From an uncultured delta proteobacterium (GTDB lineage: Bacteria > Myxococcota_A > Polyangia > Polyangiales > Polyangiaceae): a DNA stretch of 64,000 nucleotides. Both the position numbers and the translations under genes were made by a program. The notes under the pieces were generated by a model that did no database searches, was not told where the DNA came from, and was given only the letters and a program-made list of their open reading frames with translations. Location of the stretch: positions 736,001-800,000 of the forward strand of contig CAVOKF010000003.1 in assembly GCA_963696385.1 (NCBI GenBank). The letters are read 5' to 3'. Every line of letters begins with the position of its first letter. Position 1 is the first letter of the stretch. Shown in pieces: positions 5,909 through 31,523 of this stretch.

Positions 5909-6152
5909 CGTGTTCAACGGCCGTCGCAGAGCGATTCGAGGCTACGAAGGCCACGCGGTCGCGTAGGACGTACGTGGAGCGAGGCCGACCGACGCGTCGA
6001 ACCGGGCAGCAGGCCGTTGAACACGCTTTGAGCCGGGTGATCCGCTTGCCGGCACGCGCGAGCGCGATGGCGGAATGCGGTCGGGGTGACTCCTTCTCCG
6101 TTGCACGTCGCGTTCCGCGACAAATGACCACCGCCGCCCTCCGACGAAGTCG

Positions 6153-7236: not shown

Positions 7237-7426
7237 GTCGGCCGTGTCGAATCTACTGCAGTCACGGCTCGAATCAACGCGCACGGCCAAGTCCGCAAGC
7301 AACCTGCTGTAGACGAAACCCCCGCGTGCGGACTGGCCGGGGAGCGAGAGATTCCAATTCACGAGACACAAGCTGCCGTGCTTCTTGCGTTGAGTAACGT
7401 TGGCGACTAAAAAGACTCTTGCACAT

Positions 7427-8038
7427 ATGCGTTGGTCAGCGCGACGCCCGTTCTTGGTGGCGGGCTTGCTCGCCGCAGGGTTTGCCGCGAGCGGCTGCGC
7501 CGGCCCAGGCGCGTATGTTTGGTTCGAGTCCCTGCCGCCGGACACGGGACCGGCCAGTCACGAGTACCTCATTGGCATCGGCGACGTCGTCAGCATCCAC
7601 GTGTTCGGCCATGAAGAGATGACTCTCCGCCAACGCGTGCGGTCCGATGGCCGGGTGTCGGTGCTGCTGATCGGGGACGTCGAGGCCAAAGGAAAGCACC
7701 CGAGCGCGCTTAAAGCGGAGCTCGAAGGACGGTTGAAGGACTATTTCGTATCCCCCAGCGTGGTGGTCAACATCGAAGAAACGCAACCGCTGACCGTGCT
7801 GCTGATGGGCGAGGTTGCGCGACCCGGCGCTTATGCGCTCGATTTGGATCCGCGCCTGGCCCACGCGTTGGCGCTCGGCGGTGGCCTGACCGATTATGCA
7901 TCGCGGTCGAGCATCTTCGTCGTACGAAGCGACCCGACTCCGATGCGAATCCGATTCCGGTTCGAGTCCATTTACCGGAACATCGGAGGCGCAGGGGAAT
8001 TCCAACTGCATCGCGGGGACCTTGTGGAGGTCGAGTAG
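7427..8038 (+). CDS. wza: Short OPX/Wza polysaccharide export lipoprotein (EpsY-like, no C-terminal OM helix)
   Basis: Lipobox AASGC; Poly_export motif YLIGIGDVVSIHV...RVRSDGRVSVLLIGDVEAKG; SLBB motif ALALGGGLTDYA; ends LHRGDLVEVE, about 200 aa. Confidence 0.9.
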   Translation: MRWSARRPFLVAGLLAAGFAASGCAGPGAYVWFESLPPDTGPASHEYLIGIGDVVSIHVFGHEEMTLRQRVRSDGRVSVLLIGDVEAKGKHPSALKAELEGRLKDYFVSPSVVVNIEETQPLTVLLMGEVARPGAYALDLDPRLAHALALGGGLTDYASRSSIFVVRSDPTPMRIRFRFESIYRNIGGAGEFQLHRGDLVEVE

Positions 8039-9403: not shown

Positions 9404-9446
9404 CCCACAGCCACACGAACACTCGCGAGCCGCGATAGCCCTGGCC

Positions 9447-15817: not shown

Positions 15818-16615
15818 TCAATACCACTCCTCCCAACGATCGAAGACGCCGGTCATCAGCGCGGTGAAGATCAAATCTCCGTCGAAGCGCGTGACGAACG
15901 TGCGCGGAATCGTTCCGACTGGACGGGTTTCCTCCGCCTGAGCGTACACGACTTCGTACCCCACTTGGCGAGCTGCTTGCGCCGCTGAGGCCGGCCAGTT
16001 CAGCGATTGTCCGAAGGGTATCGCAAAGGTCTCCACCTTGATACCCAATCGATCTTCAATGACGCGTCTCGACGACCCCAATTCATCCATGATCCGAGGC
16101 AAGTCGAGATGTGTGAAGTCCGGATGGGTGGCCGAATGACTGCCGACTTCGACCCCCGCGGCGATCAGACGCTCAAGGTCCCGCCAACCGAGAAACACGT
16201 CATCGCCCCAAGGTCCCTTGCCGTCCGACCAATCCGAAACCACAAACAGCGACCATGGTATATTGTAGTCGGCTAGAATCGGCGCGGCGTTGCACATGAC
16301 GCTGCGGAGCCCGTCGTCGAAGGTAATCGCCACGTCCTTGGGGCCGCCGCCATCGCGCGCCAGATCCGAAGCGGGAACGAACCGCAGCCCAGCGCCAAGA
16401 GCCAGTTCGATGTGCCGTCTGAAGTGAGCCGGGCTGACGTCGTTCACGCCAAAGAGCGGCTGACCGACCGAATGGTAACAAAGAATCCTCCCGACTTTTC
16501 GTTCTCGCCGCCTACCCCACAAGGCCAGGGCATTGCGCTCGCAATACATCCGAGCGCTGGCCACATGCTGTCGCCGGAGACCCGTTTTACGAATCAGACC
16601 CGTCAATGTCTGCAT
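15818..16615 (-). CDS. Polysaccharide deacetylase (CE4/NodB family)
   Basis: ILCYHSV, AITFDDG, EVGSHSATH, FAIPFG. Confidence 0.9.
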   Translation of the reverse strand: MQTLTGLIRKTGLRRQHVASARMYCERNALALWGRRRERKVGRILCYHSVGQPLFGVNDVSPAHFRRHIELALGAGLRFVPASDLARDGGGPKDVAITFDDGLRSVMCNAAPILADYNIPWSLFVVSDWSDGKGPWGDDVFLGWRDLERLIAAGVEVGSHSATHPDFTHLDLPRIMDELGSSRRVIEDRLGIKVETFAIPFGQSLNWPASAAQAARQVGYEVVYAQAEETRPVGTIPRTFVTRFDGDLIFTALMTGVFDRWEEWY

Positions 16616-17798: not shown

Positions 17799-19274
17799 TC
17801 ACTTGCGGTCCACCTTCCTCGACAGCGCCTCTCGCAGAAGCGCTACCTGATCTTTGCCAAGGCCGCCGACCGCCCATAGGCACAGGCCGTACGACGTCAC
17901 CGCCACGGGAGCGGCTACGAACGCCCACACGCGCGACAGCGACAGCGCCACGGCACCCATGACCCCACCGGCGACCAGACCGCGCACCATGCCGAGCGCC
18001 AGGCCACGATCGAAAATCCCCGCGGGCGCGAGCCAGACCCCTGCCACTACCATGAGCAGCTCACTCACGACGCTCGCCACACACACGCCGAGCCCGCCGT
18101 TGCCCATCCGTGACTGGAACCACGGAATGAGCAACGGATCGACCACACTACTTACAACGACGCAGAGGAACTGGGCTGCTGCCCACGCCTTTTGGCGCCC
18201 GGCAGCCAGGATCGAAATCCCAAGTGGCATGCTGACGTACATCAGCAGAAGAAAAGCAGAGAGAACGACGAGGTTCGCCTGGGCCGGACCATACGACTTT
18301 CGGCTAAAAAGCAGAATGCCGAGACCCGGATAGAGCGCACAACTGAGCGAAATGGGAATGGCGAGAACGATTGTTGCCCGAAGCGCGCTGCGGACGGTTT
18401 GCATGTAGCCCGCACGATCCCCGGCGTGCAGTCGCGACAAAGTGGGGTAAAGAGCGCCCACGATGAGGCTTGCGGGAAGAACGAGAGCGCCGATCAGCCG
18501 GCGCGCCACGGCGTGCCATCCCACCACTTCTGCTGGCGCGAGCTTCGACAGCAGGACGGCGTCGACGTTCGGTTGCAGTGCCATCGAGAAACCAAAGAGT
18601 AGAAATGGCGTGCCCTGAGTGACCAGAACCCGTAAGGCATCGCGGTCCGGTCGCAACCGTCCTACCCCGACCGACCCCAGAACGCGCGCAACGAGTAGCA
18701 ACACGATCGCTGAGGCCGCGGCTTGCGCCAAGAGCACTGCCCGGAGGCCCCCTCCGAGCCACAGCGTGGGCACAACGAATACGACGGCGAGCAACTGCTG
18801 CGCAACCTGACCGTACGCTCCGATGTCGGTTCGCTCGAACCCCCTCACCGTATCCTGGCACGCGCTCGTCAGGGTTTGAAAGAAGCATTGGGTTACGACG
18901 AGTGCCAGGACCAGTTGGAACTCGCGCGGATATCGCACGGCGGCGGAGCCCGCCGTCAACAAGCCGTAAACGACGAGTGCGACAGCAAAGCGCCAGAGCA
19001 AGGCCGTCCCGAGCAGCGCCCCGGCGCCGGAGCGATCGCGCGCGACGTTTCCGGTCAGAACGGCACCTTGACCCCATTCGACCACCAAAAATCCGAACGA
19101 GGTGAGCATCCAAGCCACGTAGATACGACCGAAGTCGCTGGCTCCCAGATAGCGAGCCATCACGGCCGTCAACAAGATCGAAAGCGGAGTCCCGACGACC
19201 TGCGCACCAAGTGAGACAAGCGTATTGCGGAGCACCAGGCGCCGTGGATTCGAGGAGACCGATTTCGCCGTCAA
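17799..19274 (-). CDS. wzx: Wzx flippase (polysaccharide biosynthesis/export)
   Basis: About 14 hydrophobic segments; LRNTL, ARYLGASDFG, NVDAVLLSKL...VVGWH, ALYPTLSRL; start uncertain (ORF to 19391). Confidence 0.9.
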   Translation of the reverse strand: MTAKSVSSNPRRLVLRNTLVSLGAQVVGTPLSILLTAVMARYLGASDFGRIYVAWMLTSFGFLVVEWGQGAVLTGNVARDRSGAGALLGTALLWRFAVALVVYGLLTAGSAAVRYPREFQLVLALVVTQCFFQTLTSACQDTVRGFERTDIGAYGQVAQQLLAVVFVVPTLWLGGGLRAVLLAQAAASAIVLLLVARVLGSVGVGRLRPDRDALRVLVTQGTPFLLFGFSMALQPNVDAVLLSKLAPAEVVGWHAVARRLIGALVLPASLIVGALYPTLSRLHAGDRAGYMQTVRSALRATIVLAIPISLSCALYPGLGILLFSRKSYGPAQANLVVLSAFLLLMYVSMPLGISILAAGRQKAWAAAQFLCVVVSSVVDPLLIPWFQSRMGNGGLGVCVASVVSELLMVVAGVWLAPAGIFDRGLALGMVRGLVAGGVMGAVALSLSRVWAFVAAPVAVTSYGLCLWAVGGLGKDQVALLREALSRKVDRK

Positions 19275-19735
19275 GAAGCCACCCCGCCCGCTGTCGTGCT
19301 CGCCCGAAACGATCTCCGATCCACCCTCATGTTCACCCGAAAGATCCCATAAGCGCATGAGCCTTGACGAGGGATTTCTTCTCTGCACCACGGCGGCTTC
19401 GGGCCGAGATCCACGACCGGATGGTCCGCCGAGCCGGCTTTCGGTTCACGCCTCCGTTGTGCATCGGACCCGACCGATCGCCCATGCACGGCCGCGCCCC
19501 GAGCAGCGTCCCGTGCCAAAAGCGGTTCGATCGCGGCATCGTGCGAGCCATCCAACGAGGAGAGGCGGAAGCGAACGACGGCCGGCGAGCCCCGGCGCCC
19601 CCGTGCCGCATTTGAACCCAACCCCGGCCCACCTTGAAGTATCCTGAAGGCCCTTTTCCGCGAGCCGCGCACCCCCGCGCGCCGCGAGATGTCATCCATC
19701 CCAGACGCATCGAGATCTGCGAAACCACGAAGCAC

Positions 19736-20608
19736 ATGGACATCTCTTTGGTGATATGCACGCGGAATCGCGCCTCTCAGCTCTCCGAAGCCTTGCGTCG
19801 ACTGGAGCGAATCGAGTCCGAAATACCCTGGGAGCTTGTCATCGTCGACAATGGATCGACCGACTCGACGGCCTCCGTTCTTCGGGAATTCCAATCGCGA
19901 GGCGGCTTGCGCGCCCGCGCGATCCTGGTTTTCGAAGGGCATCCCGGGCTCGGGCGCGCACGGAACACAGGCTGGAGAAAGGCGTCCGGGAAGATCATCG
20001 CGTTTTCCGACGACGACTGCTATCCGCAAGAGGACTACATCAGTCGTATGGTGGAGTGCTTTGCAGAGCGCGAGGTCGGATTCATCGGCGGGCGGGTGCT
20101 CTTGTTCGACAACACCGACATTCGGTTGACCATCCAGGAGCTGGGCGAACGAGTTGACCTTTTGCCGAGAACGTTCATCCGGGCGGGCCTGATTCAGGGC
20201 GCGAATTTTGCCGTGCGACGGGAGGTTCTCGAAGCCATCGGCGGATTCGACGATCGCTTCGGTGCGGGGACTCCGTTCGCATGCGAGGACGTCGACTTGC
20301 TTGCTCGCGCTTCGGCGCTCGGGTGGAAGGGCGCGTACGATCCACGGCCGGTCGTTTATCACCATCATGGTCGCAAATCGTGGCGATTCGAGGGTCGACG
20401 ACTCCTGAAGACATACGATATCGCGCGCGGAGCCTACTACACGAAGACGATACTCAATCGGCCCATGTCGCGCGTCTACCTACTCCGTTGGCTGGACTTG
20501 ATGACGAAGCAGAGTCCATTTCGCACCTTCCGCGAACTGGTGGGCGGCCTTCGGTTCCTTGTGGCTGAGTTCGCGTCGCATCAGGAGACCGGGGTCCCCA
20601 GGTCCTGA
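19736..20608 (+). CDS. Glycosyltransferase family 2
   Basis: MDISLVICTRNR, ELVIVDNGSTD, ARNTG, AFSDDDC, GANFAVRR, GGFDDRFGAG, EDVD. Confidence 0.92.
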   Translation: MDISLVICTRNRASQLSEALRRLERIESEIPWELVIVDNGSTDSTASVLREFQSRGGLRARAILVFEGHPGLGRARNTGWRKASGKIIAFSDDDCYPQEDYISRMVECFAEREVGFIGGRVLLFDNTDIRLTIQELGERVDLLPRTFIRAGLIQGANFAVRREVLEAIGGFDDRFGAGTPFACEDVDLLARASALGWKGAYDPRPVVYHHHGRKSWRFEGRRLLKTYDIARGAYYTKTILNRPMSRVYLLRWLDLMTKQSPFRTFRELVGGLRFLVAEFASHQETGVPRS

Positions 20609-20749
20609 GCAACGCCGTTTCCTGAACCGTGGCGATCGGGCGGGGCCCTTCCCAAGCTCGAGTCCCGGATGCGGCCGGTGTCCTGTGGGCGGGCGCAAGC
20701 CCACCCGAATGATGGGTCGGCGCCACGCCCCGGGCGGGCGCCCTCCTGC

Positions 20750-21841
20750 TCATCCGGCTGTGGGCACCGAACCATCGGACGCCGCGGCGCGACCGTCGAG
20801 CGACGCTTGGATCGCCCCGCTCACGTCGCCGCAAAATTTGTCGAGCGTATGGTGCTTCTCCACATAGGCTCGCGCGGCCCGCCCCATGGCGCTGGCGCGG
20901 TCCGGATCGTTCCACAGAGACACGATCGCCGCGCGCAGCGCAGAGGCATCCCCAACAGGAACGAACAGACCCGTCACCCCTTCCTGGATCACGTCCACCT
21001 GTCCTTTCGTGCGGGAGCAGATGACCGGCTTGCCCATAGCCATTGCTTCGAGGATTACGTTGACGCCGTTGTCCGTGTCCGTTCGGCTTAGCGGCACGAC
21101 CACGAACCGCGACTTCGCGTACGTTTCACGAAGGTCGGTGAGCGGCAGACGGCCGACGGTCACGTTGTCGCTTGCAAGACGGGCAAAGACTTCGGCGCTC
21201 ACGCGGTGTCCGAAGCCGAAACGATCCACTCGCACGTGATCGGTTGCGATGTGGCAACGGAGGTCGGTACCGCGTAGGGCATCGAGCAGTGTCGGATAAT
21301 CACGCATTTCGGCCCCTGCGCTGCTTATCATTTCGATCGACCGCTCACGCGGGCTCCAAAACAGCTGGTCGACGAAGTGCTTCACGAGGTAGATCTTGTC
21401 CGGGGCGATCCGAAGCCGCTCGATCGCGTAGGTCCGCTGCACCGAGCTCCAGGTCACAATCGCCTGAAGCCCGCTGCCAAACGCCTCAAGGACTGTCCGG
21501 ACGCTCGGTCTGGAAAACCAATAAAGCATCGCTACATGCGGCTTGCTTCCAGGCGAGAAACGATCGAGCGCCATCAAGGCCAAGGAGACGCGCTCGCTCC
21601 ATGTCACGATCACGTCGTATTCCTCGCGACGACGGCTCACTTCGGCCGCAAGCCTTGCCCATCCAGGAATCCTCGGTGCCATGAGGCGAGGTTTTACGTC
21701 ACCGAGAATCGATTCGTCGTACCGTCTTTCGAACAGATCGTCGAACAACTGCCAGCGGGGTGCAGTGGCCCCGGTGGCATCGCGCGGGGGACGGTCTGTC
21801 GTGCGGCCCTGTACGGCCAGAGCCATTCGTCGTCTCGTCAC
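20750..21841 (-). CDS. Glycosyltransferase family 4
   Basis: RDYPTL, VVVPL...GVNVILEAMAMGKPVI, GLFVPVGD; GGAGG RBS before GTG. Confidence 0.9.
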   Translation of the reverse strand: MTRRRMALAVQGRTTDRPPRDATGATAPRWQLFDDLFERRYDESILGDVKPRLMAPRIPGWARLAAEVSRRREEYDVIVTWSERVSLALMALDRFSPGSKPHVAMLYWFSRPSVRTVLEAFGSGLQAIVTWSSVQRTYAIERLRIAPDKIYLVKHFVDQLFWSPRERSIEMISSAGAEMRDYPTLLDALRGTDLRCHIATDHVRVDRFGFGHRVSAEVFARLASDNVTVGRLPLTDLRETYAKSRFVVVPLSRTDTDNGVNVILEAMAMGKPVICSRTKGQVDVIQEGVTGLFVPVGDASALRAAIVSLWNDPDRASAMGRAARAYVEKHHTLDKFCGDVSGAIQASLDGRAAASDGSVPTAG

Positions 21842-21893
21842 TCAAACGCCTCCCTATTCTCGGGATCCATACTCACAGACAGCACTCGGCGCC

Positions 21894-22710
21894 TCAAGTG
21901 CCGCCCTCGCCCGATCGCAACAGAGCCCGCCCGAGAACCAGCAGGAACTTCGGGTCGCGCACGAGATAGCGATACGACAAGCGTCGCGGCTCACGACATA
22001 GGCGAAAGAGCCACTCGAGCCCCGACCGTGCCATCCAGCGTGGAGCGCGAGGCGCTGTACCAGCTAGGAAGTCCAGCGAAGCGCCGACGCCGAGCAAGAC
22101 CGCCGGGCGTAGGTCGTCGCGAGCACGGTCGATCCGAGATCTCCTGCTTTGGCGCCCCGAACGCGACGAGCACAAGGTCAGGGTGCGCCGCCCGGACGCG
22201 CTCGACGACGTGGGCCTGACGCCCGAGCGGTTCGTCCGCATCGAAACGGGGAGAATCGACGCCAACGATCTTGAGATCGGGAAGCTGCTCTCCGAGCCTC
22301 TGGCGCGCCATCTCGCCGACGCCGGGCGCGCCACCCAGGAGATACACGCCCCACCCGCGGGCGGCCGATCGGGCCAGGAGGAGCGGAACGAAGTCGGATC
22401 CGGCAACCCGCTCCGGAATGGGAGAACGAAGCAAATGGGACGCCCAAACAATCGGCATGCCGTCCGCAATGCAGAGATCCGCCCGGCCGTAAGCCGATCG
22501 CATGGCGGGATCTTCGTGAGCAATCATCACGTGGTCGACGTTCGGCGTAAACACCGCACCGCCCCTGCCCTTCGCGATGAGCGCCTCGACCACGTCCAGA
22601 GCCTCGCCTTGCGTGACCGAGTCGATCCGCACCGGGCCAAGCTGCAGGAACCGCCTCGGGCTCACCGAGCTAGCTCCGGCTCCGTCGAGCGCCCCGCGGG
22701 CCGGTGTCAT
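21894..22710 (-). pseudogene. WecB/TagA/CpsF (GT26) glycosyltransferase split by a +1 frameshift at about 22136 (pseudogene or sequencing error)
   Basis: FTPNVDH, ADGMPIVW, ERVAGSD, VAFGAPKQE in frame A; GVGASLDFLAG..RAPRWM..GLEWLFRL..EPRRL..RY in frame B. TCGG to TGG restores KQEIWI. Confidence 0.9.
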
Positions 22711-23333
22711 GTCTCGGAATCCAAGGGCGCAGGCCTTTCTCCCGCCAAGCGCGACGAGACAGAAGGGACCGGCGCTTGAACGATGGAGTCTGGCGGAACC
22801 GACGTTCGGACAAAACAGTTCGCCGTAACCTTCGAACGTGCACCGAGTGTGATCGGTCCCACGATCGTGCTTCCTGCCCCCACGTGAACACCGGTCGCAA
22901 CGACCGGCGCCCCAATCTTTCCACTGCGCGGGTCCGCACTCATTCCGAGCGTAACGTTCTGGAAGAGTATCGCTCCACGCTCGACGCGCGCGGCGCGACT
23001 GACCGCGAGGCCCATGCCATGAACGAGCACAATCCCGGGCTCGAACTGCGCTTGCCAATGAATGTCGGATCCGTAGGCGTGACGAATCAGCCTCGAGGCG
23101 ATCTGAGGTGCAAGGGGAAGTCCGGCTTCGACGAAAAAGCGCATGGTTCGGTACGCTGCCAGCATCTGAAAGCCGACACGGGTCACGAGGTCTCTCGCCA
23201 ATACCGATTCACCAGGGAACCGCTCGGCCCCGTATTTCGCGTCGTAATAGCAGAGCATTCTATGGTCTTCGCGAACCGCGTCCACCATAGCGCGCCATGC
23301 GCGGACGATACCCACCGGCCCGGGACGAGTCAC
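22707..23333 (-). CDS. Serine O-acetyltransferase-like LbH acyltransferase
   Basis: YGSDIHWQAQFEPGIVLVHGMGLAV, ILFQNVTLG, APVVATGVHVGAGSTIVGPITLG; GTGA and ATGA overlaps with both neighbours. Confidence 0.85.
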   Translation of the reverse strand: MTRPGPVGIVRAWRAMVDAVREDHRMLCYYDAKYGAERFPGESVLARDLVTRVGFQMLAAYRTMRFFVEAGLPLAPQIASRLIRHAYGSDIHWQAQFEPGIVLVHGMGLAVSRAARVERGAILFQNVTLGMSADPRSGKIGAPVVATGVHVGAGSTIVGPITLGARSKVTANCFVRTSVPPDSIVQAPVPSVSSRLAGERPAPLDSET

Positions 23334-24163
23334 GGGGACAAACCCGCGCCGCTCGCCTTGCGACGTTGAACGGCCTCTACGTGATCCATGAGCTCGCGAA
23401 TCGAGCGCACGGCTCTCACCTGGTCCTCCGCCAACGCGACGCCGATCTCTTCCTCGAGTGCCACGATGAGGCGCAGTGCGCCGAGGGAATCCCATTGCGG
23501 GATCTGGCCCGGGCCATCCTGCACGTCCGGAACACGGGATAGACCGAGCACGTGCATGACGAGCGCCGGCACGTCCCGTGGGAGGACGTCCGCGTGGTTG
23601 TCGCGATCCAACCGTGTCCGCGCGGGATTCCCCTCCACGACTGCGCCATCGGGAACGTCACCGGAGACTACGCTCCCAGCCCGCACCACCACGCCGCACC
23701 CAATCGTCGACCCCGGAAGAACGACGACGCGGTGGCCAAGCGTAGAGCCCTTGCCGACGCACACGCGCTTCGGAGCGGCGTTGCTCCTGAAATCCTCGGC
23801 CACGTGAAAGTTCGAGTCCAAGATGATCGAGAAGGCGCCGATTGACACGCCGTCCTGAATCTCCATTTCGCCGATGCACGAAATAGCTGCGCCTGCTCCG
23901 ATGCGAACTCGATTCCCAATGCGAAGGCTGCCGCTGACGAAAAGGTGCGACCGAACGGGACGGCTATTCAGCCGGAAATCGTCGCCGATGAGCAACGTCC
24001 CTGAATTGTGCACGAACGGGGAGCCGCCAAGCGCGGGCCGAGCGCCCACTCCAGTGCACCGGCGCAACCGGTATCGATCGACGGTTTCGGTGTAGCGGTC
24101 GCGCAGATGCCCGATCCAACCGCTGCCGCCCGCTCGGCTCCTCGCCATCGGCGTTAGCGTCAC
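23330..24163 (-). CDS. LbH acyltransferase fused to a C-terminal acyl carrier protein domain
   Basis: Hexapeptide repeats (IGNRVRIGAG, ILDSNFH, VVEGNPAR) followed by ACP signature IPQWDSLGALRLIVALEEEIGVAL; GTG overlaps the upstream TGA. Confidence 0.85.
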   Translation of the reverse strand: MTLTPMARSRAGGSGWIGHLRDRYTETVDRYRLRRCTGVGARPALGGSPFVHNSGTLLIGDDFRLNSRPVRSHLFVSGSLRIGNRVRIGAGAAISCIGEMEIQDGVSIGAFSIILDSNFHVAEDFRSNAAPKRVCVGKGSTLGHRVVVLPGSTIGCGVVVRAGSVVSGDVPDGAVVEGNPARTRLDRDNHADVLPRDVPALVMHVLGLSRVPDVQDGPGQIPQWDSLGALRLIVALEEEIGVALAEDQVRAVRSIRELMDHVEAVQRRKASGAGLSP

Positions 24164-26544
24164 GCGATGAGCTCCAGAGAAATGGCCTCGGGGATCGGAA
24201 ATTCGCGGCGGGTGTCCCAAATAAAGCGCGTGGGCAGTTCGCGCTGGAAGCTCGAACGTTCCCAAAATTCAAGACAAGGCTTGTTCTTCGGGGTCGTTAC
24301 CAGGTCCGCGATGACGACGTCCAGCGACAGCTTCCTGGCGGTGTCCACGGCGATGTGCGCCATCGTCTCCTCGACACGACGACCCATGACCCGGCAACTC
24401 AGAACGAAGTCGACGACACGCGCAGCGCCTCCCTGCGCCTCCAAACTGAGGACGCCTGTCAAGCCGGCATCGCCCAGGCGGTCCGACACCGACAGTGCCC
24501 ACAGCCAACGCCCCTTCTGCGTTGCCCATGCGAGCAGCTCGCCCTCCGTCAGCCGCCGGGTGGCCAGGTTCATCTGATTGGTTTTGTTCAGTAGCTGCGT
24601 CGCGCGCGACAGGTTCGCGGCGTTCAACGGCTCGGCGCGGACACGTATTCCGAGGCCCTTGAGCCACTCGTCGAGGGAGCCAACCTGAGCGCGGAGCTCC
24701 TCACGCTTGCGGTCCGACGCATACATTTCGGTGCGGACGGCGTCCTCCGCACTGCGCGTCGGAGTGTCGAAGCAGCGCAGCGACAGGAGCGTGCTTGCGT
24801 AGGCGAGCTTATCGTCCGGCCAATCCGGAACGAATACTTCGGGCAACGCCTCACGCACCCGCGCCCGCTCGAAAGGATTGTCGTCGATGAACACCGTCGA
24901 CTGGAGCCCCAGGTTCACACTGGATACGATTTCGGCGACGTTCTTGGCCTTGTCTTGCCAGTTGATCCGCCACGCGACGAAATCATCCTCTTTCAGGACC
25001 ATCGCGGCGTGATTGCGAATCGCCTCGAGTGCGACGGTCTCTTCGTTTTTGCTCACCATGGCGAGCAAAATGCCACGCCGCTTGAGGCTCTTTAGCGCGC
25101 GTTGAAAGTCGACGAACGCCTCTCCGACGCTGTCGTGACCGCCGAGGCGCAGTTGTTCCCAGCCGACGTCGCCGACGATTCCACCCCAAAGCGTGTCGTC
25201 GAGATCGACCACGACGAGCTTGCGCGTCAGGCCGGTCATGCTGGCGATTGCAGCTCTGATGTCCCCGGCTGCCTGTTCGAAGACCCCCGAGTGAAAGGGG
25301 ACCTTGCCCATGTACCAAAGCTTGGCGCTGTACGCGCCGCGGCCGACGTGTTCGAACCATCGCTGGGCGTTGAGTACGAAGATGCTCGGCGCCCCATCGA
25401 GCTGCGCGACGAGCCGATGATTGATGGCGTAGAGAGCGCGCGTTATCCCATGAGGGCGTGAATCGGCGAGACCCAACCCCCGCCGCCACGGCGCAACCGT
25501 CCACGAAGGCACGAACGCGAACCGGTACGATTGCAGGCCCTCCCGCAGCAGTTTGACGAAGGCGTCGACTTCCGAGAGAAGGACTTCCTCCTCGACCTGC
25601 TCGAACTCCAGAACGCGAGCGAAGGAGGGCAAAACGCCTTCGGGTCGGGTCCATACAACCGCGTAGTCGTGCTCCGAGTTCCTCGCCGACATCAGCGTGG
25701 GGACGACTTGACCGTAAGGCGCAACTGTCGCAGCAACCGGAGCGCTCTCGCCACCGGCTTCGAGGAAACGAGCCAACTCGTCGATCGTGAAATCCGACAC
25801 GAGAAGACCCCGATGAGCCGCCTCAGGACGTGCGCCGCCTGATGCTTTTGCGGTCCCGTTCTGGAGCCCCCGGTCACCCTCGACCTCCCGCATCGAGGCG
25901 CCGTTCGCGCCGACCGCTCCCGTCGATTGGACGACGGCGGCGCCACGGTCGAGATACCGAAGAACACGCGCCGGGTTGCCTCCGGCAACGACCCTCGGCG
26001 GCACCTCGCCGGTGACGACGCTGCCGGCGGTGATGACGGCGCCATGACCGATACGGGCGCCCGGCAGCACCGTCACGCGACTCGCCAGCCACACGCCGTC
26101 GCCAATCTCGACCGGCTCCGCGCCGATGCCCTCAGGGCCTTCGGGGTCCCCCAGTTCGGTGTCCGAGACGATGCAGTACGGGCCGATGGCGACACGGTCA
26201 CCGATCGTGACGCGGAGGTTCGCGCTGATGACGCTGCCAAAGTTGATGGACCCTTGCCCACCGATGCGAATGGCGCCGTTGGGGCCCGTCATAAGTTCGA
26301 CGGGGGCGAAGTCGCATACCAGCTTCGTGCGGCTGCCGATGTCGATGCGCCCCCGGTTGTCGACATGGACCCGGCCGATCACGCGAACCCAAGCGCCAAC
26401 GGTATTGCAGTTTCGAAACTGCAAGCGACCGGAAGCGGCTTCGGCGATGTATGCGGCGTCCTCCCTCAGGCGTGTCAAAAGAGCCTGGTCGCGCTGACGG
26501 ACCAGCCGCTCGCGCAGGAGAGAAAGAAACTGGTTCACGGCCAT
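24160..26544 (-). CDS. N-terminal LbH domain fused to an FkbH-like (HAD-IIIC phosphatase/glyceryl-ACP transferase) domain
   Basis: LbH in the first ~200 aa (IGDGVWLASRVTVLPGARIG...GGNPARV); FkbH motifs KLVVVDLDDTLWGGIVGD, SKNE, INWQDK, FIDDNPFER, QLLNKTNQMNL, LSCRVMGRRVE. Confidence 0.9.
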   Translation of the reverse strand: MAVNQFLSLLRERLVRQRDQALLTRLREDAAYIAEAASGRLQFRNCNTVGAWVRVIGRVHVDNRGRIDIGSRTKLVCDFAPVELMTGPNGAIRIGGQGSINFGSVISANLRVTIGDRVAIGPYCIVSDTELGDPEGPEGIGAEPVEIGDGVWLASRVTVLPGARIGHGAVITAGSVVTGEVPPRVVAGGNPARVLRYLDRGAAVVQSTGAVGANGASMREVEGDRGLQNGTAKASGGARPEAAHRGLLVSDFTIDELARFLEAGGESAPVAATVAPYGQVVPTLMSARNSEHDYAVVWTRPEGVLPSFARVLEFEQVEEEVLLSEVDAFVKLLREGLQSYRFAFVPSWTVAPWRRGLGLADSRPHGITRALYAINHRLVAQLDGAPSIFVLNAQRWFEHVGRGAYSAKLWYMGKVPFHSGVFEQAAGDIRAAIASMTGLTRKLVVVDLDDTLWGGIVGDVGWEQLRLGGHDSVGEAFVDFQRALKSLKRRGILLAMVSKNEETVALEAIRNHAAMVLKEDDFVAWRINWQDKAKNVAEIVSSVNLGLQSTVFIDDNPFERARVREALPEVFVPDWPDDKLAYASTLLSLRCFDTPTRSAEDAVRTEMYASDRKREELRAQVGSLDEWLKGLGIRVRAEPLNAANLSRATQLLNKTNQMNLATRRLTEGELLAWATQKGRWLWALSVSDRLGDAGLTGVLSLEAQGGAARVVDFVLSCRVMGRRVEETMAHIAVDTARKLSLDVVIADLVTTPKNKPCLEFWERSSFQRELPTRFIWDTRREFPIPEAISLELIA

Positions 26545-26719
26545 TAATCCAGTAGCGTCTGCATGGGCTCAGATCAAGGCCGTGCGTGCGCACCCTCGTT
26601 GCCTCTGCAGGGCTCATCTTGTCGCCCACGGCATCGATGGCGTATCCTCCGAGATTGCGCGCTCCGGCGTAGCGGTGAGGCGGGATGCGACGCCGGCCCG
26701 ACGAGCAAGGAGACACCTT

Positions 26720-27868
26720 ATGACCGCCGAACCGCCGCACACGGCGCCCACCGTTGGCGCAAACCCGACCGAGGCCAGGCCCACGGTAAGCGTGGTTCTC
26801 GCGACCTACAATCGTCTCGACTCCCTTCTCCGGCTGCTGTCGTGTCTGACCGGTCAGACGCTGTCGCCCAGCCGGTTCGAGGTCGTCGTCGTGGACGACG
26901 GATCGACGATCCCGGTACGCGAGCACGTGACAGCGCGACGGTATCCGTTCCCGGTGTCGGTTCTCGAGCAGATCAACGCTGGGCCATCGGCGGCACGCCA
27001 CCGCGGCGTCCTCCAGGCGCGCGGCGACGTTTTGGTGCTCGTCGACGACGACATGGATCTGCCCTCGCACTTTCTGGAGACTCACCTCCGGTATCACACG
27101 AGCGGCCGCCCTACGGCGGTCTTCGGCCGCTACGTCTCGGATCCAAACATCGGTGCCAAGGCCCTCTTCGAGCGCTATCACGGCTTGAAGTGGGACGAGC
27201 TCTCGCGCGCCGTGGCGAGCGGACGGGTCAAAGTGGATGGGACCCTTCTGGCAACTGGCAACGCATCGATGCGTCGGCAAGACTACCTCCGAGTGGGAGG
27301 GCTCGATCTGTCCTTGCCGCGCGCAGAGGACGTGGCCCTTGGGCTGGATCTCGAGGAGCTCGGCGTCGATCTCGTCTTCTCGGACGCCGCCTACTCCGTG
27401 CATTTGTCGGACCATTCTCAGCCTGAAAAATGGCGGGCGCGGGCGCTCCTGCACGGGAGGCTCGAACCACGAATCGCACGCAAGCATCCAGCGATGGCGC
27501 ACGCCGACCCATGGAGGTTTGCCTTCTCGCTTCCTTTGGCCGGTCGCGTCCTTTGCCTGCCTGCCTTACTCGCTCCGTCGCTCGGCGAGAAGGTCGCGAC
27601 CCTCACCTACGAGGCCGCCGAACGCGCCGATGAGCTCGGCTTCGAGCGCCTCGCCATGCGCGCAACCGGACTCGTATTCGGGATGGAATATTTCCGCGGG
27701 TTGCGGCAAGAAGCCGGGTCGATCCGCGGGGTCGCCACGGGTTGTCTCAACTTCCTAAGAAAGGCCGCCGCCTCCGATCGACCCGTCGCGGGAGTGCCGC
27801 CCTGGCTGGCACGCGGCGTCCGCGCCCTTACCGACGGCTGGGATCGGCCGACGGACTCTGCCGATTAG
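26720..27868 (+). CDS. Glycosyltransferase family 2
   Basis: SVVLATYNR, FEVVVVDDGS, NAGPSAARHRG, VLVDDDM, TGNAS, AEDV; AAGGAG RBS. Confidence 0.9.
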   Translation: MTAEPPHTAPTVGANPTEARPTVSVVLATYNRLDSLLRLLSCLTGQTLSPSRFEVVVVDDGSTIPVREHVTARRYPFPVSVLEQINAGPSAARHRGVLQARGDVLVLVDDDMDLPSHFLETHLRYHTSGRPTAVFGRYVSDPNIGAKALFERYHGLKWDELSRAVASGRVKVDGTLLATGNASMRRQDYLRVGGLDLSLPRAEDVALGLDLEELGVDLVFSDAAYSVHLSDHSQPEKWRARALLHGRLEPRIARKHPAMAHADPWRFAFSLPLAGRVLCLPALLAPSLGEKVATLTYEAAERADELGFERLAMRATGLVFGMEYFRGLRQEAGSIRGVATGCLNFLRKAAASDRPVAGVPPWLARGVRALTDGWDRPTDSAD

Positions 27869-29358
27869 GGCGACTGCAGGTAGCTTGGGTCCGCCCCGGG
27901 CCCCTCGAGAGCCTGCATGAACGCCACCAGATCACGCTGATCGAGGTCGGTCAAGCCGATCGGGTGGATCTCGGACGTGCCCGGATACCCACTGATGTTG
28001 CCCCCCATGTTGAAGAACGCGACGACTGCCGCGAGCGAGCCCATTTGGCCCGTATGCATCCATGTCGGCCTCATGCTCACGCACCGCAGCGTCGGCGTCC
28101 GAAAGGCGCCTAGCCTCTGCGGCGAGACCGTCGCCGGCAAGCGTCCGTCGCTCCCGTCACTGAAGATACCCAACGAATTGAGCGGGTCAGCGATGGCCTC
28201 AGCGATCCCTGTGGCGGCCCCCTGATCGTTCGCGTCGATGAATGCTTGCTGCACAATCTGCGGCTCTAGCCCGACGTTGTGAAACTGTTGGTCGGACATG
28301 AAAGGGCCAGCATGACACTGGACGCAACCACCTTTCCCGACAAACACGGCGGCCCCTCGCTGGGCAGAGCGGGACACGGCCGTCGTACTTCCGTGCATCC
28401 ACGCATCGAAGGGGGACGGGCCACACGTCAGAAGGCGCTCGAAAGCGCCGATCGCCTTTCCGGCATTGACCACCACGGTGGTGACGGCCAATTGGTTGCT
28501 CGCCGTCATGCCATCGAATTCGGCGTGGTCTCCCGGCATGCCATGGTACGTCCCGTCGCATACCGGCTGCGGTGCAGCAGGATTCTGCGGCTGGCACCCA
28601 GTCAACTGGGCGCTGAGCACCGGGAACTGGCTCGCGTCGTCCAACGGCGGCATCGGACCGAAGAGCGCCTCGTAGTCGGCCTGATAGCGCGCGAAAATTT
28701 GCTCCGCCGCATAGAGGCGCGAACTGTTCATCTCCACGACGGTCTCCAGCGGGCCGAAGATCTGGTTGTAGAGCGCATCCCGCCGGCCGTCCCACATAAG
28801 AAGCGTCGCCTGGCCTACGTCGAGCAGCGGCAAGGCGCGCCGCCGACCCCAACCGGCTCCAAGAGAAATCTGGCGCTGAAACGACCTCGTATCCGAGAAA
28901 CCGCTGGTGGGAATGTGACACCCGGCGCAGGCCACACGGCCGGTCTGACCGACCGTTCCCAGAGTGTCCGGACTGCCATCGTTGTCGGTATCCAGGAGAG
29001 GCCCTGAGAACGACGGATCGTAGAATAACCTTTGACCCAGAGCTGCCGCCGCTGGACTGTCCGCAAAGCGATTGGTCGCATCCGGCGGAGACGGGGGCAA
29101 CGGGTCCGGGGAGAGAGCTTGCAGCGCGGACCACTGATCCGCGCTAATCACGGCATCCGGGTCGTCCGCGTCCGAGGCCGCTTCCTCGAGATCCCCGTCG
29201 ACGGCCGCTGCGTCACTCGTTGCCGCGTCCTCCGCCACGTCATCGCGCGGTCCGTCGGCGCCTTCAGCCACGGCGGCGGCCCGATTCGTCCCCGACGAGC
29301 CGCATCCGATCGCGCCGCACGCGAGCGTCATCAGTGTCGCGTTCAATAGGCGCCGCAC
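27865..29358 (-). CDS. Di-heme cytochrome c peroxidase/MauG superfamily lipoprotein
   Basis: Lipobox AIGC; LGQRLFYD..FS, CAGCH, MWDGR, RGAAVF.GKGGCVQCHAGP, FHNVG, FRTPTLR, MHTG. Confidence 0.88.
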   Translation of the reverse strand: MRRLLNATLMTLACGAIGCGSSGTNRAAAVAEGADGPRDDVAEDAATSDAAAVDGDLEEAASDADDPDAVISADQWSALQALSPDPLPPSPPDATNRFADSPAAAALGQRLFYDPSFSGPLLDTDNDGSPDTLGTVGQTGRVACAGCHIPTSGFSDTRSFQRQISLGAGWGRRRALPLLDVGQATLLMWDGRRDALYNQIFGPLETVVEMNSSRLYAAEQIFARYQADYEALFGPMPPLDDASQFPVLSAQLTGCQPQNPAAPQPVCDGTYHGMPGDHAEFDGMTASNQLAVTTVVVNAGKAIGAFERLLTCGPSPFDAWMHGSTTAVSRSAQRGAAVFVGKGGCVQCHAGPFMSDQQFHNVGLEPQIVQQAFIDANDQGAATGIAEAIADPLNSLGIFSDGSDGRLPATVSPQRLGAFRTPTLRCVSMRPTWMHTGQMGSLAAVVAFFNMGGNISGYPGTSEIHPIGLTDLDQRDLVAFMQALEGPGADPSYLQSP

Positions 29359-31523
29359 GGCAACTGAGTCTCGTCCCAGGTTGGAGCCGCCGCACCACTC
29401 TTGAACGCGAGGTCATCAAAATGACGCTTGGTCTCCTCGCATTGATGCGCGTAGAGGAAAGAGTATGGCCGCGCCTGATAGCAGATGAGCTCGTCCGGAG
29501 CCCCTTCGTGATACAGCACGTCGCCGAAGGTCACGGTCACCGCCCCCTGCAGCGTGAAGCCACTGGGAAACAGCGAGCAACCAGCAGGCGTTCCGTCGAG
29601 GAAAACGTACATCCGTTGCGAGGACACGTAGAGGTCGAAGCGCGTCATCCGGTCGACCCCCGCATGCTCGAACGGCGGCTCGGTGGGTATCGTGACGCTT
29701 CCCGGCTGAGCCATGTCGTAATCGATGAAGCGATGCTCAGAGGCCTGGTTGTTCACGTCCCAGGGACTGCCGTTGACCAATCCATGAATCGCTTCGGCTT
29801 CAATGCGCATCGACGGCCCAAGAATCGGTTGAATCAGAAGCGTGTTGTTGTTCGGGAGCGACAGTGCTTCTTGAACGGGAGCGTCCTGATCGGAGATGAT
29901 GAGCTGGGGGTAACGTCGGTCCGTACTGACGATGTCCACGGACATCGTGGCATGCAGGAACGTGGTGGGGTCCGCATCGATGTTCGCCTTTTGAAGAGCG
30001 GTAAAGCGCACTTTGCCCGTCGTGTCCTGGGCGTAGTCATCGTAGGCTACCCAGAGCTGTCCCAGCACCTGCCCATAGGTGAAGACCATGACGCCGCCCG
30101 GCTCATCGAGCCGATATGCGCTGAAGTCAAAAGCGGAGGACTGCCAGCGCCCACAGTTGAAGTCCGTGCAGCCTGGAACGGCGGTGACTGTGCCGAAGTC
30201 GCTGCCGACCGTGAAGCCCTGATACCAGTCCCAATCGGCAGGATCGTGCGGCGCTGGGGCGACCTGAATGAACGAACGTGCCACGGGAATCGGGGAAGCG
30301 GTCGGGGTCCGCAACGCCGAAGCACCGCCGTCGACGAAGAAGGTCTCGATCGGAATGCCGGGCCGGTCGTACTGGCCGTTGACAAAGACTTCGCCCGCAG
30401 GCGTTGCCTCCGTCAAGTCGGCAAGGGTCAAGAACGTCTGGTGCGGCGGGGCGTCGAGATGCTGAGGCGAAAGGAAGCCCTGAAACGGACACCCCGAGGC
30501 AAGAGCTTCCACGACGAGCGTGGTCGGCTGCGTGATCCCCGACCACTCAAGGTGCCAGAGCGGACCGGTTGCGCCTTGCGTGGTCGCACGGTTGTAGCGC
30601 TCTTGCCCCACCGCAAGTTCGACGTGTGAGTCGGGCGGCTGGTACGTCACCGCCATCAGAGGCTTCGTTTCGGCCGCCTGGGCCGTGAGCACCTGAAAGG
30701 CCGCCGCGGGCGCGGTCGTGTCCCCGGAGTGCGAGGCGAGATCGGCGCTGGCGAAATAGTACCTTGCGTATTGAGTCCAATCCTGCCCCGGTTGGACCGC
30801 GGCCGTCTGGGACGAGTATACCGTGCTCGTCGCGGCGCTCGCCGCGGCCGGCGCGTAGAATACGATACCGTCGTCGCGCCAGCCCTGGCTCAGAAACGCT
30901 TGCCGCTCGCTCGCGTCGGTCGTGTACACTTTGAGGCGACTCTCCCTCCAGCCGACCTCACCGCCGGTCGTGTACCCAGCAACCGCGTAGACGGGCACGC
31001 GATCCGCGCCCGGCGAAACGTACACGTAGCCGAGAGTCGGGTCTGTGCTGACTTCGCCCGTCCACGAATACTGCCCAGACGCGGTGACGAGACCCGAGTT
31101 GTTGGAGGTGAGATTCGTCGGCAAGTCGTAGGTCTGACGCACGCCTGCGCAGCGGTAGATGGCATTCTGTATGGACACCGATCCGTCGGGATTGACTGTG
31201 ATGTCTTGATCGTTGGGTAAGGGGTAGACCCGGTAATCGATGGCTCCGTCGAACGGATCGAAGTCGATCCCTACGGAGTCTTCCCTCTGCGTCGCCGTCA
31301 CATTCGTCAGCGGCGCCAGCGAGGGCAGCTTCGTCGCAACGCCCCCTTCGATTTGCGCGATGATGGTGCCAAAGCTCGTCGCCCCCGAGTCGACCTGAGG
31401 CTGCGTCACCGTGGTGCTCGCGACCACATCCGGGACCGCACCGCCGTCGCGTGGCGCCGAACCCTCCGACGACGAGCAACCGAAAATGCTCAGACCGATC
31501 AGCCAGTGCCAGTTCTCTCTCAT
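29343..31523 (-). CDS. Large secreted lipoprotein of unknown function (possible DUF5648-like segment; C-terminal beta-sandwich)
   Basis: 726-aa ORF, lipobox IFGC; segment VYTTDASERQAFLSQGWRDDGIVFY resembles DUF5648 repeats; 16-bp overlap with the di-heme gene. Confidence 0.7.
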   Translation of the reverse strand: MRENWHWLIGLSIFGCSSSEGSAPRDGGAVPDVVASTTVTQPQVDSGATSFGTIIAQIEGGVATKLPSLAPLTNVTATQREDSVGIDFDPFDGAIDYRVYPLPNDQDITVNPDGSVSIQNAIYRCAGVRQTYDLPTNLTSNNSGLVTASGQYSWTGEVSTDPTLGYVYVSPGADRVPVYAVAGYTTGGEVGWRESRLKVYTTDASERQAFLSQGWRDDGIVFYAPAAASAATSTVYSSQTAAVQPGQDWTQYARYYFASADLASHSGDTTAPAAAFQVLTAQAAETKPLMAVTYQPPDSHVELAVGQERYNRATTQGATGPLWHLEWSGITQPTTLVVEALASGCPFQGFLSPQHLDAPPHQTFLTLADLTEATPAGEVFVNGQYDRPGIPIETFFVDGGASALRTPTASPIPVARSFIQVAPAPHDPADWDWYQGFTVGSDFGTVTAVPGCTDFNCGRWQSSAFDFSAYRLDEPGGVMVFTYGQVLGQLWVAYDDYAQDTTGKVRFTALQKANIDADPTTFLHATMSVDIVSTDRRYPQLIISDQDAPVQEALSLPNNNTLLIQPILGPSMRIEAEAIHGLVNGSPWDVNNQASEHRFIDYDMAQPGSVTIPTEPPFEHAGVDRMTRFDLYVSSQRMYVFLDGTPAGCSLFPSGFTLQGAVTVTFGDVLYHEGAPDELICYQARPYSFLYAHQCEETKRHFDDLAFKSGAAAPTWDETQLPCGAY

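Follow-up and report, generated by a model that had tools for sequence, protein, structure and literature searches.

Introduction

The FkbH/OzmB-type glyceryl-ACP synthases of the methoxymalonyl-ACP and tetronate pathways load an adjacent, dedicated acyl carrier protein (ACP) with glycerate from 1,3-bisphosphoglycerate, giving glyceryl-S-ACP, and they are marked by HAD and Cys motifs. Two such enzyme/carrier pairs, Mad14/Mad12 and Mad7/Mad8, are named for tetromadurin in the accessible portion of PMC7489565. Here we describe a block of four genes from an uncultured delta proteobacterium of the Polyangiaceae (assembly GCA_963696385.1, contig CAVOKF010000003.1), lying at positions 21,894 to 26,544 of an analysed stretch of 64,000 nucleotides, hereafter the window (positions 736,001 to 800,000 of the contig). 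The block encodes an FkbH-family enzyme with the same motifs, an adjacent carrier and the same predicted product. Unlike in the methoxymalonyl and tetronate pathways, however, enzyme and carrier are each fused to a left-handed beta-helix (LbH) domain, the pair sits in a Wzx/Wzy polysaccharide locus coupled to a glycosyltransferase, and no polyketide synthase (PKS), FabH-like or FkbG/I/K-like gene was found among the scanned open reading frames (ORFs) of the window. That scan covered 65 of the 107 ORFs of at least 200 amino acids and all 88 ORFs of 120–199 amino acids; the other 42 long ORFs, which overlap scanned ones in other frames, lie outside it. We argue that the block very probably encodes a carrier-protein route, assembled from parts of known kinds, that puts glycerate on an exopolysaccharide (EPS).

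LbH domains are familiar from the sugar acyltransferases that use acyl-CoA (MAT, GAT, WbbJ and WcaF; WlbB, PerB, QdtC and AntD, the last of which uses 3-hydroxybutyryl-CoA), and the domains described here share their fold and hexapeptide repeats. Unlike in those enzymes, the donor predicted here is a covalently attached acyl-ACP. An earlier reading of the block, made from sequence only (the sequence-only reading), took acyl-CoA to be the normal donor of LbH enzymes, which is true of this group but not of LpxA and LpxD, the LbH acyltransferases of lipid A synthesis. These take their acyl group from acyl-ACP and so set a precedent for the O- or N-acylation of a sugar by an LbH enzyme. Their donor is the free housekeeping AcpP with a hydroxy fatty acid, unlike the fused ACP of the present block, and the likeness is mechanistic only, the sequence relation being negligible (24.1 bits against a cut-off of 231 for LpxA and 32.6 against 207 for LpxD, NF002060).

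Carrier proteins also take part in the acylation of other surface glycans. Dlt-type D-alanylation of polymers combines a carrier protein with an MBOAT protein, and the VC0248-VC0252 genes of Vibrio cholerae presumably include an ACP and an LbH transferase. According to the accessible portion of PMC3441752, the latter genes belong to the tetronate N-acylation of perosamine in the O1 antigen. Both systems, like the one proposed here, use dedicated machinery to build or hold the acyl group before it reaches the surface polymer; unlike in the Dlt system, no MBOAT or AMP-binding match was found among the scanned ORFs, and transfer is predicted to be cytoplasmic and carried out by an LbH domain. The only FkbH gene that a search of the open literature found named in a glycan locus is cj1302, mentioned in passing for the flagellin-glycosylation locus of Campylobacter jejuni in the part of PMC7099621 that is accessible. 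There, the strain in which cj1302 is a pseudogene is one of two that lack the glycans in which pseudaminic acid carries dimethylglyceric acid (DMGA), a correlation given without a mechanism. By its description this system resembles ours in having an FkbH-domain gene in a glycan locus and a glycan with a glycerate-derived acyl group, but what is acylated there is a protein-bound nonulosonic acid and no EPS, and the accessible text reports no fusion.

As a polysaccharide locus, the window is of the same pathway type as the eps locus of Myxococcus xanthus (EpsZ, EpsD, EpsC, EpsA, Wzx, Wzy, EpsV, EpsY). The accessible portion of PMC7484181 describes EpsD, EpsC, EpsB and EpsA as encoded by neighbouring genes and names neither an FkbH protein nor a carrier. 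The window encodes homologues of EpsZ, EpsD, EpsC, EpsA, EpsE, EpsV and Wzy_EPS, all of which score below the equivalog cut-offs; those of EpsA, EpsC and EpsD, held against the NCBIfam cut-offs, are homologues in the same type of locus, not equivalogs. In contrast to the M. xanthus arrangement, the FkbH/ACP pair is inserted here between the EpsD-like and the EpsC-like genes.

Domain architecture of the four genes

All four genes lie on the minus strand. Gene 1 (24160..26544, 794 amino acids) encodes the LbH-FkbH protein, assigned by Pfam and NCBIfam profiles and a PDB sequence match, and gene 2 (23330..24163, 277 amino acids) the LbH-ACP protein, assigned by Pfam, by its relatives and by an AlphaFold2 (AF2) model. 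Gene 3 (22707..23333, 208 amino acids) encodes an EpsC/CysE-like LbH acyltransferase and gene 4 (21894..22710) an EpsA-like glycosyltransferase of the WecG/TagA/CpsF family, both assigned by Pfam and NCBIfam. Reading the junctions directly, the stop codon of gene 1 overlaps the GTG start of gene 2 in a GTGA (24163-24160), that of gene 2 overlaps the GTG start of gene 3 in a second GTGA (23333-23330), and that of gene 3 overlaps the ATG start of gene 4 in an ATGA (22710-22707). This arrangement, which the sequence-only reading had described correctly in strand and coordinates, is consistent with translational coupling of genes 1–4. The block is a real and intact four-gene cassette.

Gene 1 runs from an N-terminal helix through an LbH domain (25945..26412, minus strand, about residues 45-200; called g1 type below) and an Ala/Gly-rich linker (about residues 200-245) into an FkbH N-domain, a HAD-IIIC core and a C-terminal Cys domain. 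Its Hexapep match (Pfam) reaches 38.4 bits at residues 145-179 (cut-off 27), and the solved structures nearest to its LbH domain are galactoside/maltose O-acetyltransferases (E ~6e-17). The FkbH core (24241..25227, minus strand, residues 440-768) scores 283.3 bits with TIGR01686 (FkbH; cut-off 146.65), filling profile positions 2-321 of 323, and 64.4 bits with the HAD-IIIC profile (cut-off 35.75). HAD motif I is found in VDLDDTLWGG (D447-x-D449-x-T451, codons 25206-25192), followed by S498, K499 and N500, by D554 and D555, and by S716, C717 and R718 in LSCRV (Cys codon 24394-24396). The DxDxT, SKN, DD and SCR residues are invariant in 11 of 11 diverse FkbH-like proteins, drawn from glycan loci, a locus with MBOAT and one next to a PKS, and in all 45 fused relatives. 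The only solved relative of the FkbH part is the uncharacterised BF1531 of Bacteroides fragilis (PDB 3slr; residues 363-597, E 6e-44).

By profile and motifs, the core of gene 1 is a full member of the FkbH family, so that the DLDDTLWGG and LSCRV motifs to which the sequence-only reading pointed belong to a protein scoring well above the family cut-off. Loading of D-glycerate from 1,3-bisphosphoglycerate onto the partner ACP is predicted for it; in OzmB, the conserved Cys of the C-terminal domain reportedly carries the glyceryl thioester. Relatives of gene 1 are populous in metagenomes (1475 at E<=1e-3 among those scored), and the source names of its fused relatives include Aggregicoccus, Polyangiaceae and Myxococcaceae. 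Among the 120 best database relatives, 118 carry Hexapep on an FkbH-like protein of ~720-910 amino acids, a recurrence by which the LbH-FkbH architecture is far beyond chance.

The AF2 model of gene 2, built with 56 homologues, has a mean predicted local distance difference test score (pLDDT) of 81.4. From the N-terminus it consists of a helix, a beta-helix that ends near residue 183 and a four-helix ACP at residues 195-275 (pLDDT ~89-97). The LbH domain (23609..24031, minus strand; g2 type, loop motif LDSNFH) matches Hexapep with 32.1 bits. A fold search confirmed it as an LbH with maltose O-acetyltransferases as best matches, and the best PDB sequence match is the N-acetyltransferase WlbB (E 6e-11), with O-acetyltransferases close behind. 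The ACP domain (23339..23581, minus strand, about residues 195-275) passes the PP-binding cut-off (PF00550; 22.6 bits against 20.8) over profile positions 30-67 only, and its predicted phosphopantetheine-attachment site is Ser226 in WDSLG (codon 23486-23488). W224, D225 and S226 are conserved in 56 of 56 LbH-ACP relatives, and Ser226 aligns with an invariant Ser of the small ACP-like ORFs that lie directly upstream of FkbH in nine of 14 loci outside the Myxococcota. Profile, Ser and model together indicate that gene 2 carries an ACP, for which the holo form is predicted; the LbH-ACP fusion proposed beforehand on its WDSL motif is borne out.

The LbH-ACP fusion is itself widespread, with 223 relatives at E<=1e-5, 85 representatives at E<=1e-30 in a 50%-identity library and three Hexapep+PP-binding clusters in the ESM Atlas, commonest in Myxococcota. 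It also occurs with other partners. In single chains it is followed by an adenylating enzyme (P0294, P0317, P0339, P0285) or, in P0322, by an acetoacetate-CoA-ligase-like part (660 bits against an NCBIfam cut-off of 639), and in P0262, P0271, P0312, P0324 and P0337 it is preceded by a FemAB-like GNAT (Acetyltransf_6). H120, D116, W224 and S226 are kept in 11 of 11 LbH-ACP proteins including these other fusion forms. Since the LbH-ACP unit is retained with varying loaders and with its key residues, the ACP-adjacent LbH domain is the constant partner of the carrier, and since it is also fused to adenylating enzymes, LbH-ACP may be regarded as a carrier-plus-transferase module with swappable loaders. 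As separate observations, the ligase part of P0322 hints at 3-oxo- or 3-hydroxybutyryl decoration by such a module, and P0337 (1203 amino acids) has two matched Acetyltransf_6 stretches.

Gene 3 is CysE-like, as first described, though below the curated cut-offs (93.2 bits against 150 for NF041874, EpsC; 84 against 210.65 for TIGR01172). Gene 4 likewise belongs to the family it was given to at the outset (WecB/TagA), but a frame break had been missed. Its match to WecG/TagA/CpsF (PF03808) is split between two frames (profile positions 1-111 and 113-168), as is that to the EpsA profile (151.4 and 72.5 bits against a cut-off of 500), and relative to a 94%-identical contig (L002) the frame is broken by one extra base at window position 22136. 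Contigs of three DNA runs leave this base out, at depths of 7.34 of 7.34 (X1), 7.79 of 7.79 (X3) and 2.7 of 2.7 (X8); the runs belong to three studies, and two of them may represent the source sample. Because these contigs and L002 lack the base, we regard it as an assembly error and not as the mark of a pseudogene, with gene 4 intact in the population. WecG-family enzymes transfer ManNAc-type sugars.

The fused pair in other Myxococcota

LbH-ACP adjoins LbH-FkbH in 11 of 11 related loci (L002-L007, L013, L014, L040-L042), one of which, L007, yielded only the LbH part of the partner gene and not the ACP. L002, a contig labelled Polyangiaceae, is fully syntenic. Glycan genes lie within ~6 kb of the pair in nine of the 11 loci and a PKS or nonribosomal peptide synthetase (NRPS) beside none of them. 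Homologous fusions lying mainly beside PKS clusters, or already characterised in another role, had been named beforehand as findings that would speak against a function in glycan acylation; neither is what these loci and the searched open literature show.

In genome G195, WecG is fused to LbH-FkbH in two places (L042 8016-10991, minus strand, and L041 6890-9919, plus strand; 991 and 1009 amino acids). Both copies have the gene order EpsD-like, SAT-like, WecG-LbH-FkbH, LbH-ACP, and in L041 the EpsD-like GT2 and the SAT-like LbH likewise form a single protein (666 amino acids). The congeneric genome G225, which is 97% complete, has no match to gene 1 at E<=1e-20; its EpsD-like gene lies directly beside the GT4 gene that neighbours gene 4 in the window, with none of the four genes there. 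Since G225 lacks the whole block between the same neighbours, the four genes are gained or lost as one cassette.

Two LbH types and the proposed transfer step

The two LbH domains of the pair differ at the site where catalysis would be expected. In the g2 type, D116 and H120 are invariant in 56 of 56 sequences (His codon 23804-23806) within the loop (L/M)D(S/T)(N/D)(F/Y)H, and S72 and H73 do not vary either among the plain LbH-ACP proteins. H120 aligns with a His of the NFHH loop in the solved galactoside O-acetyltransferase of Staphylococcus aureus (SACOL2570). In the g1 type, N63, N101, D128 and W152 are invariant in 45 of 45 sequences, and variable residues with no conserved His stand at the position of His120 of gene 2. 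The sequence-only reading had proposed an LbH domain as the transferase; the proposal is supported, with the refinement that the two domains are not equivalent and that only the ACP-fused one keeps an invariant His. A tree of LbH domains separates the two types, with the g2 clade supported at 88/98 and g1 weakly, at 49/92; it does not order g1, g2 and stand-alone LbH domains relative to one another, and we draw no conclusion from it on an ancestral form. When both domains were compared with the LbH sugar acyltransferases, all named-family scores fell far below the curated cut-offs, and on that ground neither domain would be placed in any of these named families.

Taking the observed domain identities, motifs, linkage, fusions and pattern of presence and absence as what has to be explained, we infer as follows which acyl group is carried, how and to what acceptor it is transferred, and what each LbH domain does. 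The function that we consider most likely, at a probability of about 0.55, is that the LbH domain of gene 2 acts in the cytoplasm as a transferase, moving the glyceryl group from glyceryl-S-ACP to an EPS sugar. Within a Wzx/Wzy exopolysaccharide locus, the four genes would serve as an accessory cassette for tailoring. A phosphopantetheinyl transferase, of which one is encoded elsewhere in the genome, would convert the ACP of gene 2 to its holo form. The FkbH part of gene 1 would take 1,3-bisphosphoglycerate, dephosphorylate it on the HAD domain and hold the D-glycerate as a thioester on Cys717, from where it would pass to the phosphopantetheine on Ser226 of gene 2. The LbH domain of gene 2 would then accept the glyceryl-pantetheine arm in the groove where ordinary LbH enzymes bind acyl-CoA and, using His120, move the glycerate onto a sugar hydroxyl or amine. 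Transfer would occur in the cytoplasm, on a nucleotide sugar or an undecaprenyl-PP-linked repeat unit before flipping by Wzx, and the glycerate would be placed on the sugar that the co-transcribed WecG-type glycosyltransferase contributes, or on an adjacent site. The His-less LbH domain of gene 1 would most likely serve as a trimerising or docking domain that keeps the loader near the carrier, and gene 3 would be a separate acyl-CoA O-acetyltransferase, like EpsC of M. xanthus.

The loading step is predicted from membership of the FkbH family and its invariant residues. The transfer step is suggested by the conserved LbH-ACP fusion, the invariant His, the precedent of LpxA and LpxD and the fact that no other acyltransferase able to take the cargo was found among the scanned ORFs of the window. 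In structures of LbH enzymes with CoA, the nucleotide part of the CoA sits close to the C-terminus of the beta-helix, and because the ACP of gene 2 is attached there, its pantetheine arm could occupy the CoA groove. No hydrophobic segment was found in the products of genes 1–4 or in the CE4 deacetylase encoded in the window, with the Wzx protein as a control showing many, which argues for a cytoplasmic location of all five. The WecG fusion points to the sugar that the WecG-type glycosyltransferase adds, or to the intermediate that it makes, as the acceptor. All in silico tests that were run favour the original proposal of a glyceryl-S-ACP donor and LbH-catalysed transfer to an EPS sugar, in which acyl group, linkage and acceptor remain predicted.

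As to the linkage, an O-ester is slightly favoured by the His and by the likeness to WbbJ, WcaF and MAT. An N-linked glyceroyl group is possible because the window encodes aminotransferases, a 3-dehydrogenase-like enzyme and the cytoplasmic CE4 deacetylase, with no adjacent N-acetyltransferase.

The conservation of the g1 type raises the question of whether the gene 1 LbH is the real transferase, or a second one, acting on the product of WecG, with the gene 2 LbH being structural or adding a second glyceryl group elsewhere. The residues N63, N101, D128 and W152 are as invariant as stated above, a g1-type LbH is fused directly to the C-terminus of WecG in G195, and the two types occur together in every one of the 11 loci. 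Against this, the g1 type has no conserved His, nor any other conserved base, at the loop of g2 H120, the single-chain LbH-ACP-ligase proteins contain a g2-type LbH only, and the loci outside the Myxococcota that have an LbH near FkbH (five of 14) have a single one, not two. We consider such a role for the gene 1 LbH possible, though well short of probable.

A further alternative is that both LbH domains are ordinary acetyl-CoA O-acetyltransferases that happen to be fused, and that the carrier hands its cargo to another enzyme. Their closest named relatives, WbbJ, WcaF and the maltose/galactoside O-acetyltransferases, do use acetyl-CoA. Yet the scanned window ORFs yielded no other acyltransferase to receive the cargo (MBOAT, GNAT or condensation-type), and the retention of the LbH-ACP fusion with different loaders would be hard to explain if the LbH ignored the ACP, so that we regard this explanation as very unlikely.

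FkbH genes in other bacteria

Outside the Myxococcota we examined 14 loci with FkbH, whose FkbH part is 46-60% identical to the core of gene 1 and has the same invariant residues. Nine of them are glycan loci, with genes for glycosyltransferases, Wzx, Wzy, deacetylases, sugar transferases or nonulosonic acids, and one (L010) adjoins a PKS. The LbH found near FkbH in five loci is a stand-alone protein, and GNAT-type enzymes accompany FkbH in L021, L024 and L043. In polysaccharide loci of other bacteria, FkbH also occurs with an MBOAT protein (L047 6294-9751, minus strand; L044 58-4925, minus strand; L027 15602-17029); L047 also has a small ACP, and L027 an ORF that is ACP-like. Judged by gene content, this is a Dlt-like layout in which FkbH replaces the adenylating enzyme as the loader.

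Some loci contain genes for further steps. Directly downstream of FkbH, a MaoC-dehydratase/SDR fusion is encoded in four loci from different phyla (L017 4151-5872; L020 4111-5889; L022 2780-4630; L026 12697-14328). This fusion may turn glyceryl-ACP into a different C3 acyl group, a step with a parallel in bryostatin synthesis, whose loading module is FkbH-DH-KR. In L015 and L019, FkbH is followed by a methyltransferase and a glyoxalase-fold protein. L019 (2294-13106), from a metagenome-assembled genome of the Thermodesulfovibrionales, is a nonulosonic-acid cluster with genes for PseB-like, DegT, ACP, FkbH, methyltransferase, glyoxalase-fold (VOC), LbH, NeuB, NeuC and formyltransferase proteins, and is a candidate for making a methylglyceroyl nonulosonic acid like that of Campylobacter.

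These neighbours, together with the dimethylglyceric acid on the pseudaminic acid of Campylobacter flagellin (PMC7099621, accessible portion), raise the possibility that the cargo of the present block is not plain glycerate. Another phosphorylated acid might be loaded, or glyceryl-S-ACP might be oxidised, dehydrated, reduced or methylated before transfer, and the EPS would then bear a different C3 or derived group. The four-gene block itself, however, contains no such tailoring gene, no methyltransferase, MaoC or VOC match was found among the scanned window ORFs, and the gene 1 core keeps the invariant residues of the FkbH proteins of other loci at the identity given above. A modified cargo is therefore rather unlikely in our view, and plain glycerate remains our preferred reading.

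FkbH domains also serve outside glycan loci. In two other Myxococcota genomes, an FkbH-like domain (~35% identical) forms part of proteins of ~1550 amino acids with an ACP-...-thioester-reductase architecture (L049 3705-8348 and L050 4598-9253, both on the minus strand), which adjoin adenylation-ACP-reductase proteins; this is a non-glycan thiotemplate use.

Such megaenzymes beside adenylating enzymes, the PKS next to FkbH in L010 and the fused-pair loci L005 and L014, which have no glycan neighbours, would suit a module whose position in an eps locus is incidental and whose glyceryl-S-ACP feeds a lipid, a small molecule or the modification of a protein. The WecG-LbH-FkbH fusion of G195, the coupling to a glycosyltransferase that is suggested by the gene overlaps, and the joint absence of the whole block from G225 all speak for a link to the glycan instead, and the thiotemplate FkbHs of L049 and L050 are only ~35% identical, against 46-60% for those of glycan loci. 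A function unconnected with the EPS is doubtful on this evidence, and less likely than a modified cargo.

Locus context and expression

The window, whose G+C content is ~63%, is by its gene content a large Wzx/Wzy polysaccharide locus and a Polyangiaceae counterpart of the M. xanthus eps locus. Divergent from gene 1 lies an EpsD-like GT2 gene (26582..27868, plus strand; NF041875 310.1 bits against a cut-off of 370), whose true start is probably ~40-70 codons downstream of the listed GTG. On the other side of the block is a GT4 glycosyltransferase gene, weakly EpsE-like by its profile matches (20750..21841, minus strand), and beyond it are those for a Wzx-type flippase (17799..19391, minus strand; Polysacc_synt, with many hydrophobic peaks) and for the CE4 deacetylase (15818-16615). 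The window also encodes EpsZ-like phosphotransferase (62954-63964, 581 bits), Wzy_EPS-like (31939-33249), EpsV-like (9288-10991) and Wza-like (7400-8038) proteins, as well as further glycosyltransferases, two Acyl_transf_3 proteins, two DegT aminotransferases, a GDP-mannose dehydratase and a UDP-GlcNAc-3-dehydrogenase-like oxidoreductase. Profile scans of the ORFs found no N-acetyltransferase beside the two sugar aminotransferases and the 3-dehydrogenase-like enzyme.

The scanned ORFs gave no Pfam match to a PKS ketosynthase, an NRPS, an AMP-ligase or an MBOAT protein, in agreement with what had been claimed for the window, and none to a PKS-type acyltransferase, an acyl-CoA dehydrogenase or an O-methyltransferase. 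A search of the whole genome (6.9 Mb in 8 contigs) showed that this is its single FkbH locus.

Two contigs of an RNA library (X20, a metatranscriptome) are 100% identical to the block, at 23184-23442 and 24565-24759, and the former spans the junction of genes 2 and 3, which is weak evidence of linkage. These contigs are compatible with expression of the operon; carry-over of DNA into the RNA library is possible. DNA runs containing the stretch are labelled as soil, wetland and peat metagenomes. A scan of 20600-27000 found one promoter-like site (0.6 expected) and three terminator-like sites (4.2 expected), counts that carry no information on the operon.

Three other features of the window were recorded. 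Two single-domain response regulators (59854-60294 and 62511-62933, both on the minus strand) flank sugar-nucleotide genes near the EpsZ-like gene. Between the EpsD-like and Wzy-like genes (27865-31523, minus strand) lie a gene of the di-haem cytochrome c peroxidase/MauG type and one for a 726-amino-acid protein with a DUF5648 stretch, a pair that is kept in G225 and partly in L006. A GT4 gene at 5914-7545 (minus strand) has its Glycos_transf_1 C-terminal domain in another frame (6153-6530), which is probably a second assembly indel error.

Discussion

Several points weigh against the proposed transfer by the gene 2 LbH to an EPS sugar. The organism is known only from metagenomes and the chemistry rests on its sequence, while the catalytic role of the conserved Cys is taken from what is reported for OzmB. 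The g1-type LbH is strongly conserved and stands directly behind the WecG domain in G195, and it may itself transfer, since some LbH N-acyltransferases work without a catalytic base. Neither sequence nor fold comparison separates O- from N-acylation, as the matches to WlbB on one side and the maltose O-acetyltransferases on the other illustrate. Two of the 11 fused-pair loci (L005 and L014) show no glycan gene nearby, and the distribution of the pair is patchy, the fused form occurring in three of 401 sampled Myxococcota genomes, its own included. Gellan, the best-known EPS with glycerate, carries O-L-glycerate according to the accessible portion of PMC9104527, whereas FkbH gives the D form, so not every glyceryl polysaccharide need arise in this way.

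Searches of the open literature, which did not extend to subscription journals, found no paper on carrier-protein glyceroylation of sugars and no characterised pathway with these fusions, as the sequence-only reading had also held. Among the 12 gellan papers listed by a search on its glycerate, none contains the word acyltransferase. CMP-linked 2,3-di-O-methylglyceroyl nonulosonic acids were again seen in 2026 (bioRxiv 10.64898/2026.04.20.719630, accessible portion), and the genetic basis of the N-glyceroyl group in Pse5Am7Gra of Tannerella was called 'a major challenge' in 2017 (PMC5378307, accessible portion). The present block adds a double LbH fusion, together with a relative in which WecG is joined to LbH-FkbH, the presence or absence of the whole cassette among close relatives, and an LbH-ACP module whose loaders are interchangeable.

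A broader idea can be put forward tentatively. LbH-ACP may be a general thiotemplate module for the decoration of glycans, served by FkbH for glycerate and by adenylating enzymes for other acids. The His-less LbH would form mixed trimers with LbH-ACP, joined in some species by WecG, and the resulting particle would pass a glycolytic intermediate directly to the lipid-linked repeat unit. Such a module might also be the missing genetic basis of other glyceroyl or hydroxyacyl decorations, such as Pse7Gra in Tannerella and DMGA-Pse in Campylobacter.

Glyceroyl and hydroxyacyl groups on bacterial surface sugars shape antigenicity, recognition by phages and the physics of the polymer. Mass spectrometry on two soluble proteins would be a direct test of the question raised by the four-gene cassette. 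That LbH-ACP has swappable loaders suggests that a logic like that of PKS and NRPS systems is in wider, unrecognised use in glycan tailoring. Such a logic could be mined, and polysaccharides could be given new acyl groups with its help.

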